In this document: one piece after another, positions 3,452 through 10,544 of the stretch
Numbering within the stretch: position 1 is the stretch's first letter
How the letters are laid out: each line of letters begins with the position of its first letter
From: Escherichia phage nepoznato
Strand: one strand, 5' to 3'
Sequence record: NC_052658.1
Length of the DNA: 64,000 nucleotides
Notes under the pieces: generated by a model
Seen by the model: only the letters and a program-made list of their open reading frames with translations
Databases searched by the model: none
What the model was told of the DNA's origin: nothing
Made by a program: the position numbers and the translations under genes

Positions 3452-3552
3452 TTGTTCCTCCAGTCAGGTATAAAATCGTTAAGGCAAGGCTGTATTATAT
3501 ACAACCTCACCTATCTAGTTATAATACACTTTAAAGTGACTTTTGTCAACAA

Positions 3553-4380
3553 TTATCTTTTACGGACACTATACGGTTGGTGAAATCCGCTGTTCATTCT
3601 ACTGTATCCTGTAGGAGCATTTGTTGTTGCAGGGATAGCTACTGCTTTGAAAGTATTCTCTTTTGACAGAGTATTGAAACAAGAAGCAGCAGCATCGGGA
3701 ATGTCATCTTTAATAGTGGCTGTAGATCTTTCACCATTGAAAGATTCCAATTCTTTATAAAAGTGGGTTAAAGTTTCCACATTAGGGAAAGAATCTTCAA
3801 CAATATAAACAAAACCGTTTTGACACGCACTACTAAAAGGCATAAAACGCTGAAGCTTTTTCTTGTTGCCTGGCATAGCATCTGGTTTAACAACAAAACC
3901 CTCTAGAATAAGTTTCTTTGCAGACTCTGTATATTCTATTGTCCCAGCACCAGATGGGTCTTTAGGAAGAACTACTGTAACTTCTGGTCCATCAATCTTA
4001 CATTGATTTAGAATCAGGTTATCCCTTTCCCCAGGTAATCTTCGAAACCTTCCGAAAATTTTACTTTTCTCATCCACAGCATCATAATCATAGTCACCAA
4101 AGATGTAGATATTACCATCTTGGTCTTTACCCATTTTGACAGATGTTGTATAGTCTGGATAACGATAAGTTTCTGTAGGAACTGAAACAGCTTTATCCCA
4201 TGCTCGCATTAGTTTAAGATTATTAGGAACATCTTTATAAGATATCTTATGCAACCATTCACGTTGGAAGAAAGACTCTTTCTGTATACGTGCAAACCAA
4301 CAGCCGTCCAAGAGTTGTGCTCTTTTGATTGCTGTTTGTGATTTAAGCTGTGCTAAATAATTAGGGTTAAGCCTAATCAA
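3553..4380 (-). CDS. terL: terminase large subunit, C-terminal nuclease segment
   Basis: 275 aa; track start is TTG with no RBS; reading frame stays open upstream to an in-frame TAG at 4423-4425; C-terminal ...IKDDIPDAAAS... resembles terminase nuclease-domain end; same strand as ATPase segment 5356-6597. Confidence 0.5.
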   Translation of the reverse strand: MIRLNPNYLAQLKSQTAIKRAQLLDGCWFARIQKESFFQREWLHKISYKDVPNNLKLMRAWDKAVSVPTETYRYPDYTTSVKMGKDQDGNIYIFGDYDYDAVDEKSKIFGRFRRLPGERDNLILNQCKIDGPEVTVVLPKDPSGAGTIEYTESAKKLILEGFVVKPDAMPGNKKKLQRFMPFSSACQNGFVYIVEDSFPNVETLTHFYKELESFNGERSTATIKDDIPDAAASCFNTLSKENTFKAVAIPATTNAPTGYSRMNSGFHQPYSVRKR

Positions 4381-4559
4381 TTCTGGGTTATCAAATCTTT
4401 TTATTCTGGAGTAGTCGCAACTCTACTCCACGTTCTCTTATGAACTGCTGCACATCACTGTGCAGAATAGACTATATCATCATCTCCTAAGAGATGCTTT
4501 GCTTTTCGAGCAGCATTTGCTTCTGCCCTACTCCCTTTCGGGATAGTCGTTGAACTACA

Positions 4560-5240
4560 TCACCAATTGTAGTTATTAGATAAGTACGTATAGGTTTTCC
4601 TATCTTTAATACTCTTAACTACATTAAAACTTACACCGTATTTTTTAGCTATTTTATTTATTGATAGAATATTTTCTTGCAGCTTTTCACAAATCCCTAA
4701 GACTTTATCTTCACTTATTCTGTTGGAAGAGGGTATTTTTCTAAAGTTAAAGTCTTGTGAAATGTCTTTATATGTTCTGCCAGCTTTTATATCACTAACA
4801 ACAGATTGTGCCACATTATACATCTGACAGATATCTTTGTTACGTGATCCTTGCTCTAACAGTTTGCAAATTTCCACAGCAACAGTGTCTGGAATAGGTC
4901 TGTAGTCATTTATGACTTCTGTTCGTCTTAACCCTGTGGACATAGCATGAAGAGTATTCTCTTGTTCTGTTGTCCACTCAAGATTGTCTGCACAATTATT
5001 AAGTTTGTTGCCATCTTTGTGATTAACAAAAGGCTTATTTTCAGGGTTAGGCACAAATGCTTTTGCTATCAACCTGTGCTGTAATTCTTCTATCCTACTA
5101 CCATTTTCACAAATGGTTACTCCCTTGTAATCTCCAAGCATCTTATTTTCGCTTAGGAATTTTTGGGTGTATAAACTAAAAATACGACCATCGTATGTGG
5201 CGCAATAATGCGGGTATCCGATGAAACCTAAGTTTTTCAT
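4560..5240 (-). CDS. HNH homing endonuclease
   Basis: 226 aa; His-Me finger motif ...NHKDGNKLNNCADNLEWTTEQENTLHA; own promoter and RBS; inserted between the two terminase segments. Confidence 0.7.
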   Translation of the reverse strand: MKNLGFIGYPHYCATYDGRIFSLYTQKFLSENKMLGDYKGVTICENGSRIEELQHRLIAKAFVPNPENKPFVNHKDGNKLNNCADNLEWTTEQENTLHAMSTGLRRTEVINDYRPIPDTVAVEICKLLEQGSRNKDICQMYNVAQSVVSDIKAGRTYKDISQDFNFRKIPSSNRISEDKVLGICEKLQENILSINKIAKKYGVSFNVVKSIKDRKTYTYLSNNYNW

Positions 5241-5272
5241 TTTACTCTCCTACTAATATTTTTGGAGAAGTG

Positions 5273-5301
5273 ATTATAGCTGCTGATTATCTATTTGTCA
5301 A
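5273..5301 (-). promoter_or_regulatory. strong sigma70-like promoter (TTGACA, 17 bp, TATAAT) for the HNH gene
   Basis: Minus-strand reading GTCTATTGACAAATAGATAATCAGCAGCTATAAT, followed by RBS and the ATG at 5240. Confidence 0.6.
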
Positions 5302-5355
5302 TAGACTTCCCAGCAATTAACAAAGTTATTCGATGTGCATCGCTGCACAAAGCCA

Positions 5356-6597
5356 CTATTGATTAATGGTTCCACCAATGAACACAAATGTTTGTGGTTC
5401 AATAACCACTGTTTCACCTGTATTAGGGTTTTCCATGAAACAGTTTTCTGGATATTTTTCTTTCAGTTCTTCAGGTGTGTCAGCAAAAACAGGTTCATCG
5501 TTAACAATGATGAAATATTTTTGTTTACCACACATATCTTCTCTAGGATAACCGCCCTCATCGAGATAAGGTAATACCCAATTCAAAACCCAACTATCTG
5601 CATCGGGGTTACATGTGCACAACATGAAGCTTGTTTCTGATTCTGAACGCATACGTCCCAGAAGATAGAGCATTTCATATTGCGTGAAGTGGGTTAACTC
5701 GTCAAAACCTACCATTGAATACTGTGTACCCTGATGGTTTGTTTCTGCTGTTACGTTATCATTTTCCAAATGATCGAATTTGAGGGTTCCACCACCAGTG
5801 GCTTCAAAAATGATATCCATTGTACTTTCTTTTACGTGTGGTTGTAAAGGAAGATACAAACGTTTTGCTTCTGTAAACAGACCACCTGGTTTACGGTGAG
5901 CAGTGGTGTTCTTACGGAAAAGTATTCCACCAAACAAAGGATCTTTGTAGGCGTATTTTAAAGCTTTCAGCAATAGCAGACGAGACTTGCCGCTATTCCC
6001 AGTAACGAAGCAGTGATCGCCACGTCTAAAGACAATATAGCTGCTTGGAGTCTCAAAACAATATTTCTTATCATCTGTTGAAATAACCTCGTGTATTTTT
6101 AAGTAAGTGCTCTTTTTACCAGGTATGTTAAAAGGAACACGTTTACCGAATGGATTTTCTACATAACCTTGAAGTGGTTTTCCTATTTGCTGTAATGCAA
6201 TAAGATCTCCTACAAGAATCTCGAAATGTTTCTTTGATTTCTTTTTCTTATAGAATACAAAACGGTGTTCCATACTAAGTTCTTGGAACAATCCTACACC
6301 ATTTGTTATTCTGTATAGGTTATCTCCATTTAAATCGTATTCTACAAAATAAGGTGTTACCAATTCTAAACGCTTATTCTTAGGGTTGTATTGGTAAATA
6401 TCCTCTCCCGAATATTCACTAATCTGTCTCCAACCATCTTTTGTAAGATATTCCGTTTCAGCAGAAACACATCCAGCGGCACCACCATAAATCATAACTT
6501 CTGGCATTAAATCCATTGCAAGAGTCTGTTTACCTGGTTGAGCCTTTACTTCAATATCTACTCCAGCTAAACTACCTGCTGCCTTTTTCTTTGCCAC
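5356..6597 (-). CDS. terL: terminase large subunit, N-terminal ATPase segment, with putative mini-intein
   Basis: 413 aa; Walker B-like YSMVGFDELTHF; residues 43-201 start with Cys (CVSAETEYLTKDGWRQISE, Hint block A-like) and end with Asn followed by Ser; removing them joins ...YGGAAG to SGKSRLL..., giving a canonical Walker A GAAGSGKS. Confidence 0.55.
   Translation of the reverse strand: MAKKKAAGSLAGVDIEVKAQPGKQTLAMDLMPEVMIYGGAAGCVSAETEYLTKDGWRQISEYSGEDIYQYNPKNKRLELVTPYFVEYDLNGDNLYRITNGVGLFQELSMEHRFVFYKKKKSKKHFEILVGDLIALQQIGKPLQGYVENPFGKRVPFNIPGKKSTYLKIHEVISTDDKKYCFETPSSYIVFRRGDHCFVTGNSGKSRLLLLKALKYAYKDPLFGGILFRKNTTAHRKPGGLFTEAKRLYLPLQPHVKESTMDIIFEATGGGTLKFDHLENDNVTAETNHQGTQYSMVGFDELTHFTQYEMLYLLGRMRSESETSFMLCTCNPDADSWVLNWVLPYLDEGGYPREDMCGKQKYFIIVNDEPVFADTPEELKEKYPENCFMENPNTGETVVIEPQTFVFIGGTINQ
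5995..6471 (-). other. putative mini-intein (Hint domain, about 159 aa) inside terminase Walker A
   Basis: Codon 6469-6471 is TGT (Cys1); codon 5995-5997 is AAT (terminal Asn); next codon is AGC (Ser+1). Penultimate residue is Gly, not His, so splicing competence is uncertain. Confidence 0.45.
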
Positions 6598-8100: not shown

Positions 8101-8179
8101 TGGAGGCGGGAATCGGATTTGAACCGATGATCTCCAGCATATGAAACTGGCGAGGACGACCAGACTCCTCTATCCCGCT
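8101..8179 (-). tRNA. tRNA-Met or Ile2 (anticodon CAU), CCA encoded
   Basis: Hand-folded cloverleaf: T-arm ATCGG-TTCAAAT-CCGAT, anticodon loop TTCATAT, D-stem GAGG/CCTC; A1-C72 mismatch at top of acceptor stem. Confidence 0.65.
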
Positions 8180-8185
8180 ATTATG

Positions 8186-8257
8186 TATCCCGTGCTGGAT
8201 TCGAACCAGCATCACAATAAGCTGTGGAACTCTTATCCTGTAAGTCTAACGGGAAAC
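8186..8257 (-). tRNA. tRNA-like element, anticodon arm not resolvable (possible pseudo-tRNA)
   Basis: Canonical T-arm GCTGG-TTCGAAT-CCAGC and a 6 bp acceptor pairing, but no 5+7+5 anticodon stem-loop found by hand. Confidence 0.3.
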
Positions 8258-8331
8258 TGGTTGTTTCGACAAGAATCGAACTTGTATCTCACGATTATCA
8301 GTCGTGGGTTCTACCATTGAACTACGAAACA
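8258..8331 (-). tRNA. tRNA-Ile (anticodon GAU), CCA encoded
   Basis: Acceptor TGTTTCG/CGAAACA, D-stem GTTC/GAAC, anticodon stem CACGA/TCGTG with loop CTGATAA, T-arm ACAAG-TTCGATT-CTTGT. Confidence 0.75.
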
Positions 8332-8394
8332 TTTAAAAGAATATCTCACGTCTGATACAGACTAACCTTTTGTCTGACGCATGAAATATTTAAT

Positions 8395-8471
8395 TGGTCG
8401 GAATTGCAGGATTCGAACCTGCGACCCTACGCTCCCAAAGCGTATGCTCTACCAAACTGAGCTAAATTCCG
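8395..8471 (-). tRNA. tRNA-Pro (anticodon UGG), CCA encoded
   Basis: Acceptor CGGAATT/AATTCCG, D-arm GCTC-AGTTTGGTA-GAGC, anticodon stem TACGC/GCGTA with loop TTTGGGA, T-arm GCAGG-TTCGAAT-CCTGC. The 5' end overlaps the stop of CDS 8462-8980. Confidence 0.8.
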
Positions 8472-8980
8472 TTATTAATGTGCTTCCATGTGGTGTAAGT
8501 AACAATATCCTGTATTGTCCATCTTGAAACTTCATACTTTTTTGCCAATGCTCGTTGACTAATTTTAGTAGTCTCATACTCCATACGGATTTGAATAACA
8601 TCTTTTTCTGATAACTTGGCTTTATTATTTTCTTCCCCTTTAGGATTAACAAGTAATCCTGTGCTAACAGCGTGTGTCATATTCTCATGCTGTGTCGCCC
8701 ACTCCACGTTATCCTTGTGGTTGTTAAGCTTGTTACCATCTTTGTGATTAACAGATTTCTTGTTTTCAGGATTAGGATGAAAAGCTTTACAAACCAAACG
8801 GTGAATCTTAAAACAAATACTTTTTCCTTTTCTACCGCCAATTTTTGTTGCGTGGGTATAGTAACCTGTTTTAGATATGGTTTGGGATAGTATCTTATTA
8901 GTTCTCTTACTTCTTAATCTTCCGAGGTCACTTATTTGGAAGTAATTCTCATAACCAGCTACATCACGCCATTCTTCCAT
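8462..8980 (-). CDS. HNH homing endonuclease embedded in tRNA cluster
   Basis: 172 aa; motif ...VNHKDGNKLNNHKDNVEWATQHENMTHA, closely similar to the HNH protein at 4560-5240. Confidence 0.7.
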   Translation of the reverse strand: MEEWRDVAGYENYFQISDLGRLRSKRTNKILSQTISKTGYYTHATKIGGRKGKSICFKIHRLVCKAFHPNPENKKSVNHKDGNKLNNHKDNVEWATQHENMTHAVSTGLLVNPKGEENNKAKLSEKDVIQIRMEYETTKISQRALAKKYEVSRWTIQDIVTYTTWKHINNGI

Positions 8981-9106
8981 TTATACCTACTTATACCTGA
9001 ATAAAACAATAAATCATTTAATGAAGGGCAACCAGAAGAAGTGTGAGAGAAGGAGAAAACCATGAGTAAAAGAGAAAGTTTTCTGGCAACCCTTTATTAA
9101 ATAATT

Positions 9107-9183
9107 TGGAGCGTTATATCGGATTCGAACCGATGCCACCGACTTGGAAGGACGGGATGCTGAACCGCTAACACTAATAACGC
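9107..9183 (-). tRNA. tRNA-Gly (anticodon UCC), CCA encoded
   Basis: Acceptor GCGTTAT/ATAACGC, anticodon loop CTTCCAA, T-arm ATCGG-TTCGAAT-CCGAT; one U-U mismatch in the anticodon stem. Confidence 0.7.
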
Positions 9184-9196
9184 TTTGTATATATTT

Positions 9197-9226
9197 ACTA
9201 TACTACATTTTACTATCGAATGTCAA
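9197..9226 (-). promoter_or_regulatory. sigma70-like promoter (TTGACA, 18 bp, TATAGT) for the tRNA-Gly unit
   Basis: Minus-strand reading TTAAATAACTATTGACATTCGATAGTAAAATGTAGTATAGT, immediately upstream of tRNA-Gly. Confidence 0.55.
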
Positions 9227-9501
9227 TAGTTATTTAATAGGTGGGACAGTGACGAGTATCCCATTGGGTGACTAGCCCTACGTTCGGTAAGCTAACTTAA
9301 AATAATACAAAACCAAAGTCAAATATTATTCTTCGTTGCTGTCGATGGGAGAGCCGCTTCTTCTTTTGCCCCATCCAACCCTACTCCGGTCAAGTTTCAG
9401 GTAACTCTTTTTGTGATCAACACAATACTAAGAACACTGTCTTTCGAACAGACCTTGTGCACAGGATACGACGATCAATCACAGTGCCCTTAATGTTGTG
9501 T

Positions 9502-9576
9502 TGGTGCTCCCACTCTGAATCGAACAGAGATCCACGGATTACAAAACCGTTGTAATAGCCATTATACTATAGGAGC
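9502..9576 (-). tRNA. tRNA-Thr (anticodon UGU), CCA encoded
   Basis: Acceptor GCTCCTA/TGGGAGC, anticodon stem ACGGT/TCCGT with loop TTTGTAA, T-arm CTCTG-TTCGATT-CAGAG. Confidence 0.65.
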
Positions 9577-9583
9577 AAAGCTG

Positions 9584-9657
9584 GGACTCGGCAGGATTCG
9601 ATACCTGCAATTCCAGAAGCCTATTGGCGACTGGGGGTTTACCTTAACTCTACAAGT
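9584..9657 (-). tRNA. tRNA-like element, atypical (8-nt T-loop, no clean anticodon arm)
   Basis: Acceptor GGACTTG/CGAGTCC pairs and a T-stem GCAGG/CCTGC exists, but the loop is TATCGAAT and the anticodon arm is non-canonical. Confidence 0.3.
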
Positions 9658-9666
9658 CCATAATTC

Positions 9667-9752
9667 TGGCGATGAGTATAGGATTCGAACCTATATTGTT
9701 CTTTCGAACACGGATTAACAGTCCGCCGCTTAAACCATTCAGCCAACTCATC
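9667..9752 (-). tRNA. tRNA-Asn-like (anticodon GUU) with a long variable arm, CCA encoded
   Basis: 86 nt; anticodon arm GCGGA-CTGTTAA-TCCGT; acceptor GATGAGT/ACTCATC; 15-nt variable hairpin GTTC-GAAA-GAAC; T-arm ATAGG-TTCGAAT-CCTAT. Confidence 0.55.
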
Positions 9753-9758
9753 TTAATT

Positions 9759-9846
9759 TGGTGGTGAGTGATGGAGTCGAACCACCCGAATCGCAATGAT
9801 AACAGATTTACAGTCTGCCCCGCTACCCCTACGGAATTAACTCACC
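9759..9846 (-). tRNA. tRNA-Tyr (anticodon GUA), type II, CCA encoded
   Basis: 88 nt; acceptor GGTGAGT/ACTCACC; anticodon arm GCAGA-CTGTAAA-TCTGT; long variable arm; T-arm GGTGG-TTCGACT-CCATC. Confidence 0.75.
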
Positions 9847-9976
9847 TAAATACTAATATTTAAATTCTTTTTAAAATAGCCAGTGTTCACACCACTAACT
9901 ATGAGTTATCGGTAAAGTGGTTACCGCCACTTGCCGAAGATTTACTCTGCTAAAGTAAGCTACATTAAAAAGAACT

Positions 9977-10062
9977 TGGCGGTAGATGTAGGACTCGAAC
10001 CTACACGCCGTTTCCGACTACAGTTTAGCAAACTGTCGTGGCTACCATTTCACCAATCTACC
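9977..10062 (-). tRNA. tRNA-Ser (anticodon GCU), type II, CCA encoded
   Basis: 86 nt; acceptor GGTAGAT/ATCTACC; D-stem GTG/CAC; anticodon arm ACAGT-TTGCTAA-ACTGT; long variable arm; T-loop TTCGAGT. Confidence 0.75.
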
Positions 10063-10067
10063 TAATC

Positions 10068-10158
10068 TGGTGGAAGGAGGGAGAGTCGAACTCCCAAGGC
10101 TCTTTCAAGCTCGGCGGTTTTCAAGACCGTTTTCGTCGCCACATCGATTTGCCCTTCC
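10068..10158 (-). tRNA. tRNA-Ser (anticodon UGA), type II, CCA encoded
   Basis: 91 nt; anticodon region ACGGTCTTGAAAACCG; acceptor GGAAGGG/TCCTTCC; T-arm GGGAG-TTCGACT-CTCCC. Confidence 0.7.
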
Positions 10159-10167
10159 ATACTTATA

Positions 10168-10196
10168 ATCTAACATAAAATAATGTTTGTTGTCAA
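10168..10196 (-). promoter_or_regulatory. sigma70-like promoter (TTGACA, 17 bp, TTAGAT) for the tRNA-Ser unit
   Basis: Minus-strand reading AAAAAACTATTGACAACAAACATTATTTTATGTTAGAT, upstream of tRNA-Ser(UGA). Confidence 0.5.
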
Positions 10197-10392
10197 TAGT
10201 TTTTTAAAACATTTTACCATGAATGGTGACTCCACCAACCCCCGTTCTCCACGAACGGTGCTCTTCGAGCATTTATGTCTTCTAATATAACCGTGGCCTT
10301 TGTTTATAATGTCTGACATACTTGCCTCATTCTCTGCCACCATGATCAGTAGTGGGTTCAAATCACTTGAGCTAATTCATGTTAAAATGTTC

Positions 10393-10467
10393 TGGTGTCT
10401 TTACAAGGAATCGAACCTTGACTAAGAGTTTAGAAGACTCCTGTGCTATCCATTACACCATAAAGAC
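10393..10467 (-). tRNA. tRNA-Arg (anticodon UCU), CCA encoded
   Basis: Acceptor GTCTTTA/TAAAGAC, D-arm GTGT-AATGGATA-GCAC, anticodon arm GGAGT-CTTCTAA-ACTCT, T-arm AAGG-TTCGATT-CCTT. Confidence 0.8.
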
Positions 10468-10469
10468 TT

Positions 10470-10544
10470 TGGTGGCCCTGGCTGGTTTCGATCCAGCTAC
10501 CTATCGGTTATGAGCCGACAGCTCTCCCATTGAGCTACAGGGCC
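10470..10544 (-). tRNA. tRNA-Met or Ile2 (anticodon CAU), CCA encoded
   Basis: Acceptor GGCCCTG/CAGGGCC, D-arm GCTC-AATGGGA-GAGC, anticodon arm GTCGG-CTCATAA-CCGAT, T-stem GCTGG/CCAGC with loop ATCGAAA. Confidence 0.7.

Follow-up and report, generated by a model that had tools for sequence, protein, structure and literature searches.

We describe here a mobile element in terL, the gene for the large terminase subunit, of Escherichia phage nepoznato (NC_052658.1), which was analysed within a 64,000-nucleotide (nt) stretch of its DNA called the window below. The gene is interrupted by a 969-nt insertion which, by its predicted fold, is a complete group I intron extending from P1 to P10. We consider it very probable that the insertion is a mobile, self-splicing intron of the IA type, whose P6 loop contains the gene for an I-HmuI-like HNH endonuclease and which has recently homed into the genus Phapecoctavirus from a Justusliebigvirus-type donor. 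This conclusion is carried by observations on the anatomy of the ribozyme, its homology to introns of related phages, covariation in its helices, the exact exon junction, and a recombination footprint in the adjacent exon. The same gene contains a 159-amino acid (aa) mini-intein in the Walker A P-loop, in line with the suggestion of a first-pass annotation of this DNA that the terminase may harbor two kinds of selfish elements.

Introns with HNH genes have already been described in terL of related phages, and the window intron belongs to this published family. The new elements of this study are the precise junction, a recent homing event between genera that left a sharply bounded conversion tract, and an intein family that is apparently unannotated. 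The understanding of how group I introns work is unchanged by these findings.

Exact boundaries of the insertion in terL

The window genome is of the phAPEC8 type and belongs to the genus Phapecoctavirus of the Stephanstirmvirinae. The region 3300-6900 matches dozens of phAPEC8-type phages at 98-99% identity, over 73% of its length only and as two pieces. The list of open reading frames (ORFs) gives, on the minus strand of this region, products of 413 aa (6597..5356), 226 aa (5240..4560) and 275 aa (4380..3553), with the portal gene next. Pfam assigns Terminase_6N to the first ORF (E value 3.3e-11), Terminase_6C to the third (E 3.5e-4), and HNH_3 to the one between them, in agreement with the first-pass annotation, which had recognized two terminase pieces (5356-6597 and 3553-4380) on the same strand with an HNH ORF in the middle.

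The terL gene of phAPEC8_ev052 is a single uninterrupted ORF of 691 codons. Its alignment to the window yields two abutting blocks and defines an insertion of exactly 969 nt (5365..4397, minus strand), so that a comparison with uninterrupted terL genes, proposed earlier as a way to locate the junction, fixes the exon ends at 5366 and 4396. The earlier estimate of an insertion about 1 kb long was thus correct, but the segment limits of 5356 and 4380 were not, as the first ORF runs three codons into the intron up to a TAG, and the TTG at 4380 falls inside the gene, as a Leu codon of PELIRL. The window sequence at the junction is ...GGA ACC AU|UAAUCAAUAG ... AAUAAAAAG|A UUU GAU AAC CCA GAA UUG..., where bars mark the exon ends, and the uninterrupted terL of phAPEC8_ev052 has ...GGG ACA AUA UUU GAU AAC CCA GAA UUG... 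in the same place; the sequence of intronless phAPEC8 terL around the insertion site is ..TTTATCGGTGGGACAAT|ATTTGATAACCC... Ligation of the exons in silico yields the Ile codon AUA within the sequence GGTIFDNPELIRLNP, the RNA junction being ...GGAACCAU|AUUUGAU.... With the insertion removed, GGTI|FDNPEL is read in frame as in uninterrupted TerL, and the ligated exons encode a 691-aa protein that is collinear with TerL of phAPEC8_ev052.

Removal of both the intron and the intein in silico increases the Terminase_6N score from 43.7 bits (profile positions 8-155) to 69.6 bits (profile positions 1-214). In the spliced, intein-free protein this match extends over residues 36-301 and covers both junctions, with the exon junction at residue 252. 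The insertion had been placed between an ATPase and a nuclease segment; it does split terL, but it sits within the profile of the N-terminal ATPase domain, just ahead of the conserved DNP motif and 49 residues short of the profile end. A sequence search of PDB with the mature TerL gave zero matches.

The structure of exon 2 bears on an alternative explanation that the first-pass annotation had offered, namely a split gene, in which a free-standing HNH cassette, or one within a degenerate intron, has cut terL in two and the products assemble in trans, with no RNA splicing. Trans-assembly of this kind is exemplified by NrdA of Aeromonas phage Aeh1, which is split by mobE. Both terL pieces are indeed long ORFs, they are annotated separately in phage UAB_1 and other records, and non-splicing HNH insertions have been documented (PMC7344957). 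However, exon 2 begins in the middle of a codon, it has neither an ATG nor a GTG, and a Shine-Dalgarno sequence is lacking ahead of the TTG at 4380; its frame stays open upstream as far as the stop codon 4425-4423, as had been noticed before. The break also falls inside the ATPase-domain profile, and the ORF is flanked by a complete ribozyme core supported by covariation. For these reasons we rejected trans-assembly of a split gene, which we regard as very improbable.

Predicted structure of the group I ribozyme

The Rfam model RF00028 matches the insertion in two halves, at 5375..5163 (27.2 bits, E 3.9e-4) and at 4636..4448 (47.3 bits, E 3.7e-10). Folding of the insertion flanks had been suggested as a check for P1-P9 elements, and in a model built by hand all helices could be located (Table 1). 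The U5366.G5356 pair of the predicted P1 helix is invariant in 8/8 aligned sequences, and the junction derived separately from the uninterrupted gene falls at the same place. At the other end, G4397 directly precedes exon 2 and is the terminal guanosine. The P10 helix (AUCAA/UUGAU) comprises 5 bp in register and shows, relative to rV5, one compensatory change and one replacement of G.U by G-C. The presence of P7.1 and P7.2 presumably marks the intron as a member of subgroup IA, the type of phage T4.

The td intron of phage T4, which encodes I-TevI, belongs to subgroup IA2 and has P7.1 and P7.2. Its ORF is looped out of P6 and has an internal promoter and a ribosome-binding site (RBS) overlapped by a hairpin, and the intron spreads by homing with co-conversion of the flanking exon. 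The window intron is likewise an IA-type phage intron with P7.1/P7.2, an endonuclease ORF in the P6 loop, and a co-converted flanking exon. The two systems differ in that I-TevI is a GIY-YIG enzyme, the T4 host gene encodes thymidylate synthase, and the T4 intron promoters are of the middle and late phage types, whereas the window intron has an HNH enzyme and a sigma-70 consensus.

A minor feature of the 3' ribozyme half is the heptamer GGAGUAG, which occurs twice on the minus strand, as the 5' strand of P9.2 (4423-4429) and between P7.1 and P7.2 (4529-4535), so that an alternative pairing with CUACUCC (4414-4408) is conceivable.

Table 1. Features of the interrupted terL gene in the window
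Feature	Position	Strand	Remarks
terL exon 1	5366..6597	-	GTG start 6597; last exon base U5366; precursor residues 1-410 and 2 nt of Ile411
Predicted mini-intein	5995..6471	-	159 aa, precursor residues 43-201, in Walker A motif: GGAAG|CVSAE...FVTGN|SGKS
Co-conversion tract in exon 1	5368..5416	-	sites -3 to -51
Group I intron	4397..5365	-	969 nt; 5' splice site after U5366; terminal G 4397
5' ribozyme half	5270..5369	-	hand model on 8-sequence alignment, consistent with Rfam alignment
P1	5369-5364/5358-5353	-	CCAU|UA with UAGUGG; U5366.G5356 wobble
P10 guide	5363-5359	-	AUCAA, pairs with exon-2 UUGAU 4394-4390
P2	5349-5344/5339-5334	-	GNRA loop
P3	5325-5319/4503-4497	-	CUUUGUU/AGCAAAG
P4	5315-5310/5286-5281	-	hand model
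P5	5306-5301/5294-5289	-	hand model
Sigma-70 consensus TTGACA-17-TATAAT	5273..5301	-	-35 in P5 stem/loop; -10 is P6 5' strand
P6/P6a	5' strands 5280-5276, 5274-5270; 3' strands 4563-4554	-	GCUAU-A-AUCAC with GUGAU-GUAGU, closing around ORF
Shine-Dalgarno AGGAGAG of HNH gene	5245..5251	-	sequence; can pair with UUCUCC 5269-5264 as weak hairpin
HNH homing endonuclease gene	4560..5240	-	226 aa, fills P6 loop; last codons and stop codon form P6a 3' strand
3' ribozyme half	4397..4563	-	hand model, Rfam alignment
P7	4548-4543/4475-4470	-	GACUAU/AUAGUC; P3/P7 pseudoknot
P7.1	4542-4540/4535-4533	-	CCC-GAAA-GGG
P7.2	4527-4523/4513-4509	-	GGCAG/CUGCU; 2 compensatory pairs
P8	4496-4491/4486-4481	-	hand model
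P9	4465-4459/4454-4448	-	GNRA loop
P9.1	4445-4442/4435-4432	-	hand model
P9.2	4429-4423/4414-4408	-	hand model
terL exon 2	3553..4396	-	opens with A completing Ile411 (AU|A), then FDNPELIRLNP...; stop codon 3555-3553

Homologous introns and covariation

When the intron was used as the query in a sensitive search, homologues were detected in terL of the Vequintavirinae. Introns bearing an HNH ORF are found, among others, in rV5, YP-6, HdK5, PDX, and Avunavirus 18-1-2. Their measured lengths are 979-982 nt, and they share about 67% identity with the window intron. ORF-less versions of 266-268 nt are present in RudolfGeigy, JEP1, WM, and A147. All these homologues are inserted at the same codon as in the window (..G[GA]T I|FDNP..), and the ORF-less intron of RudolfGeigy reaches 95.6 bits with RF00028, for which the gathering score is 50.

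To evaluate the helices, eight ORF-deleted introns were aligned, with P7 written as a pseudoknot, and the model was compared with controls in which pairing partners were slid along the alignment and with 500 shuffles. In the P1-P10 model 93.3% of the cells can pair, compared with 32-49% for slid partners, and 23 pairs are changed on both sides, compared with 0-7 for slid partners; the model value was reached by 0/500 shuffles. Compensatory changes were observed in P2, P3, P5, P6, P7.2, P8, P9, P9.1, and P9.2. In P10 a compensatory C-G to U-A replacement, by which the guide G becomes A, follows the exon difference TTC/TTT.

The window intron has direct precedents in annotated and published phages. 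In the rV5 record (DQ832317) terL is annotated as a three-piece join, and the paper on this phage by Kropinski et al. (2013) contains a section "Introns in terminase" that describes three segments, one of them with a homing endonuclease (PMC3606486); terL of the BASEL phage RudolfGeigy is annotated as in rV5. The second terL intron of rV5, with HNH ORF65, resembles the window intron in its codon, in helices P1-P9.2, in the location of the ORF in the P6 loop, and in the use of TATAAT as the 5' strand of P6. It differs at the nucleotide level (about 67% identity, with many compensatory changes), in its -35 hexamer (TTGCTA, compared with a perfect TTGACA in the window), and in its P10 guide, which is adapted to the exon sequence TTC and not to TTT. 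The large terminase gene of another related myovirus, Pectobacterium phage CB7 (Certrevirus, Vequintavirinae), also has an intron with an HNH gene, and its splicing was shown by reverse transcription PCR (PMC7344957); what similarity to the window intron retrieved from CB7 is a DNA polymerase intron, not this terL intron. Taken with the Rfam matches, the covarying P1-P10 helices, and the restored reading frame, the published rV5-like homologues at the same codon support the earlier proposal that the insertion is a group I intron encoding a homing endonuclease.

The rV5-like terL genes also have a further intron after Walker B and lack a P-loop intein, and the window shows the reverse arrangement. 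In RudolfGeigy this further intron (849-1127) is an ORF-less group I intron scoring 84 bits, located directly after the Walker B motif FDE of the Vequintavirus terL. The equivalent site in the window, near 5700, has no intron, and MVGFDELTHF is continuous there.

Recent transfer of the intron between genera

The phage collection has 63 Phapecoctavirus records that span the insertion site, and all of them lack the intron. It was found at 99.5-99.9% identity over 969 nt in seven Justusliebigvirus records, namely cardinal, vB_vPM_PD114, UAB_1, and 'Campylobacter phage' A150, A145, C3, and A110a, in which exon identity to the window is 75-79%. In UAB_1, an isolated and viable phage, the ribozyme halves are 100% identical to the window and the flanking exons 79% and 75%. 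Within Justusliebigvirus the intron is sporadic, many records being without it, and in the GenBank records of UAB_1 and other members of this genus the two parts of terL stand as separate or hypothetical genes and not as a single spliced one.

A sharply bounded tract upstream of the intron records the transfer. From -3 to -51, all 10 of the 10 informative sites, at which phAPEC8 differs from UAB_1, are in the Justusliebigvirus state, and all are synonymous. Farther upstream, from -57 (5422), 35/35 informative sites among those listed are in the phAPEC8 state, as are 20/20 of those listed in exon 2 from +13. Elsewhere the tract is surrounded by phAPEC8-like terL (98-99.9% identical). The best intronless record is at most 94.4% identical to the ligated 180-nt junction, and the shortfall of 10 nt equals the number of tract sites. 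Eight of the 10 tract states occur also in the intronless Justusliebigvirus muut, and therefore the donor was Justusliebigvirus or something like it. The remaining tract states, -6 A and -3 C, are together with +1 A common to all intron-bearing alleles of three genera, including the rV5-like ones (AACCAU|A), and -3 C forms the second C-G pair of P1. At positions -6 to +1, intronless Justusliebigvirus genomes have GGTACTAT|C and intronless phAPEC8 genomes have GGGACAAT|A. From this distribution, AACCAU|A looks like an older co-conversion footprint nested in the 51-nt tract, or like the outcome of selection for P1 pairing. The one-sided co-conversion suggests that the cleavage site may lie in exon 1, or that resection may have been asymmetric. 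The comparison as a whole indicates a very recent homing event, across genera, from a Justusliebigvirus-type donor into Phapecoctavirus.

Two other histories of the locus were considered. The window could be an assembly chimera from a mixed lysate, in which a Phapecoctavirus genome was joined to the intron region of a Justusliebigvirus. Searches for a further copy of the junction of the intron 3' end with Phapecoctavirus exon 2 found none in IMG/VR, JGI metagenomes, GTDB genomes, or complete Escherichia coli genomes, as a chimera would predict, and the same can be said of the lack of Phapecoctavirus records with the intron. However, the switch points fall in runs of 5 (-57 to -51) and at most 12 (+1 to +12) identical bases, much shorter than any assembler k-mer, which makes such an artifact unlikely, and an intron with a short one-sided flank is the classical footprint of homing; we give this explanation hardly any credence. 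Equally hard to sustain is an old resident intron, inherited vertically in Stephanstirmvirinae and precisely lost from the other Phapecoctavirus genomes, for although the intron is sporadic in Justusliebigvirus also and has homologues in the sister subfamily Vequintavirinae, its copies in the two genera share 99.5-99.9% identity, compared with only 75-79% for the flanking exons, and the 51-nt tract in the donor state lies inside a phAPEC8-like gene that is otherwise 98-99.9% identical.

Several of the records in this comparison have doubtful labels. GenBank entries MG065639, MG065644, MG065645, MG065650, MG065656, MG065689, and others, at least one of which is flagged UNVERIFIED, are named 'Campylobacter phage'; they closely match coliphage-type terL and are scattered among Phapecoctavirus, Justusliebigvirus, and Vequintavirus genomes, which suggests mislabelled hosts or mixed lysates.

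HNH endonuclease gene and its putative expression signals

The 226-aa protein encoded within the intron matches Pfam HNH_3 with an E value of 1.8e-9 and 37.6 bits (cut-off 24.8), and helix-turn-helix regions follow this domain. It falls into PHROG 59 (E 3.4e-49) and is 62% identical to rV5 ORF65. Its closest relative of solved structure is I-HmuI of Bacillus phage SPO1 (PDB 1U3E; E 1.7e-10 over residues 10-156), which is also encoded within a phage group I intron. I-HmuI is a nicking enzyme of 174 aa from a DNA polymerase intron, and the window protein differs from it in having the additional C-terminal helix-turn-helix region.

The TTGACA-17-TATAAT sequence that the first-pass annotation had pointed out inside the insertion is present there on the minus strand and is the sole perfect match in the 64-kb window; with at most one mismatch allowed, 4 matches were found, compared with 0.88 expected. 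Every relative with the ORF retains TATAAT, whereas the ORF-less ones lack it and read GCCAAGCC at this place, and the -35 hexamer is perfect in the window variant only. A hairpin over the ribosome-binding site of the HNH gene is conserved in outline. We speculate that a transcript starting a few bases past the -10 element would begin inside UUCUCC and would thus lack the strand that masks the RBS. The I-TevI gene of T4 has an arrangement that resembles this layout of UUCUCC and the Shine-Dalgarno sequence.

Elsewhere in the window, a free-standing HNH endonuclease gene (8462-8980, minus strand) is located among ten tRNA genes in the cluster 8104-10544; it is a paralogue of the intron HNH gene (49% identity over the HNH domain), and about 10 nt at its 3' end are shared with the tRNA at 8398-8471. 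A sigma-70-like sequence TTGACA-17-TATTAT (11/12 matches; 3521-3549, minus strand) lies in the short interval that separates the stop codon of terL from the start of the portal gene.

Proposed pathway and its weak points

The following scheme, in which we infer catalysis, promoter use, and endonuclease specificity from sequence comparison, would account for the locus. The terL gene would be transcribed together with the intron, and ribosomes entering it would halt at the UAG three codons in. The RNA would fold into P1-P9, and an external guanosine would attack after U5366, held as U.G by the guide UAGUGG. P10 (UUGAU/AUCAA) would then align the 3' exon, the terminal G4397 would be exchanged, and ligation would create the codon AUA. 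The product would be a 691-aa TerL precursor, from whose Walker A loop the 159-aa mini-intein would leave to give a 532-aa terminase. A promoter and a ribosome-binding site of its own, both within the intron, probably serve to express the HNH enzyme, which would cut or nick intronless terL of co-infecting phages, and repair would copy the intron in. In the event reconstructed here, 51-56 nt of donor exon 1 arrived along with the intron.

Several points weigh against this interpretation. Splicing is deduced from the comparison of genomic sequences. Each of the two RF00028 half-matches taken alone is below the gathering score of 50 bits, because the model is split by the ORF of about 700 nt in P6. 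Only eight sequences enter the covariation analysis, seven of them from closely related Vequintavirinae, and many of the changes represent one contrast of the window with the rest, so that the compensatory changes amount to a handful of independent events, yet these are consistent across every variable helix. The intron promoter is a consensus match only, and the hairpin masking the RBS, at -5.8 kcal/mol and a z-score of 0.1, is no stabler than in shuffled sequence.

Implications for annotation and phage biology

At present such terL genes are annotated as a truncated terminase and a hypothetical protein. In the window, and in at least seven Justusliebigvirus records, terL should be annotated as one spliced gene, with the intein marked. 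As terL is a standard phylogenetic marker, insertions and conversion tracts in it can distort trees. The locus is a clean natural case of phage intron homing across genera, with 51-56 nt co-converted upstream and less than 13 nt downstream. The recent tract, together with the possible older footprint AACCAU|A nested in it, provides a ready system for measuring homing, the specificity of the endonuclease, and what limits the spread of introns among therapeutic coliphages.

A mini-intein in the terminase P-loop

The 159-aa insert in exon 1 is an intein with a predicted HINT (hedgehog/intein) fold. It interrupts the Walker A motif, which is contiguous (GGAAGSGKS) and has no insert in TerL of Vequintavirus. 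An exhaustive HMMER search revealed 686 relatives, whose host proteins are unrelated to one another and include RecD-like, superfamily 2 (SF2) and SNF2 helicases, S-adenosylmethionine (SAM) synthetase, RtcB, primase, and other terminases. Many of them match as separated N- and C-terminal stretches, which may be read as larger inteins that carry a central inserted domain. In alignments of 12-13 sequences, C1 and the terminal GN are invariant, and LSxEH, YCF, and TGN are kept. The +1 residue after the intein is S, C, or T, usually followed by GK[ST]; the window has C43...N201|S202.

An AlphaFold2 model built from a 12-sequence alignment has a predicted local distance difference test score (pLDDT) of 95 and a predicted template modelling score (pTM) of 0.87. 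The top 50 Foldseek matches listed from PDB are all inteins, bacterial intein-like (BIL) domains, or hedgehog (HINT) domains, the best being 6ZGQ (E 2e-7). A single-sequence AlphaFold run gave a pLDDT of 37, and a word-indexed protein search returned 5 fragments only. The insert matched no curated intein profile in Pfam (E up to 10) or NCBIfam (E up to 1), whose models do not cover its family, and a sequence search of PDB gave chance matches only. The best structural match, the AceL NrdHF class 3 split intein (PDB 6ZGQ), has a block F Cys and a block G Thr and lacks both the block B Trp and the penultimate His (PMC7891396). The window intein shares all these features; unlike most class 3 inteins, its family keeps an invariant Cys1.

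A broader scenario that combines both elements can be put forward only tentatively, and as a whole we consider it unlikely. It would comprise live, recent homing from Justusliebigvirus to Phapecoctavirus; a perfect sigma-70 promoter of the host type in the ribozyme core that drives the endonuclease early, independently of the late terL transcript; and maturation of TerL that needs first RNA splicing and then protein splicing by a class-3-like Cys1 intein, either of which may gate packaging.

The intein family is apparently unannotated. An intein is not annotated in the records of phAPEC8_ev052, UAB_1, and EmilieFrey, according to a 2024 paper coliphages have no reported inteins (PMC11162368), and in the open-access literature we found no paper on an intron or intein in Phapecoctavirus terL. 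In mycobacteriophages, P-loop inteins of TerL are well known (Kelley et al. 2016; PMC5050341). They lie in the Walker A loop as does the window intein, which differs in its insertion point, G|SGKS and not between Lys and Thr.

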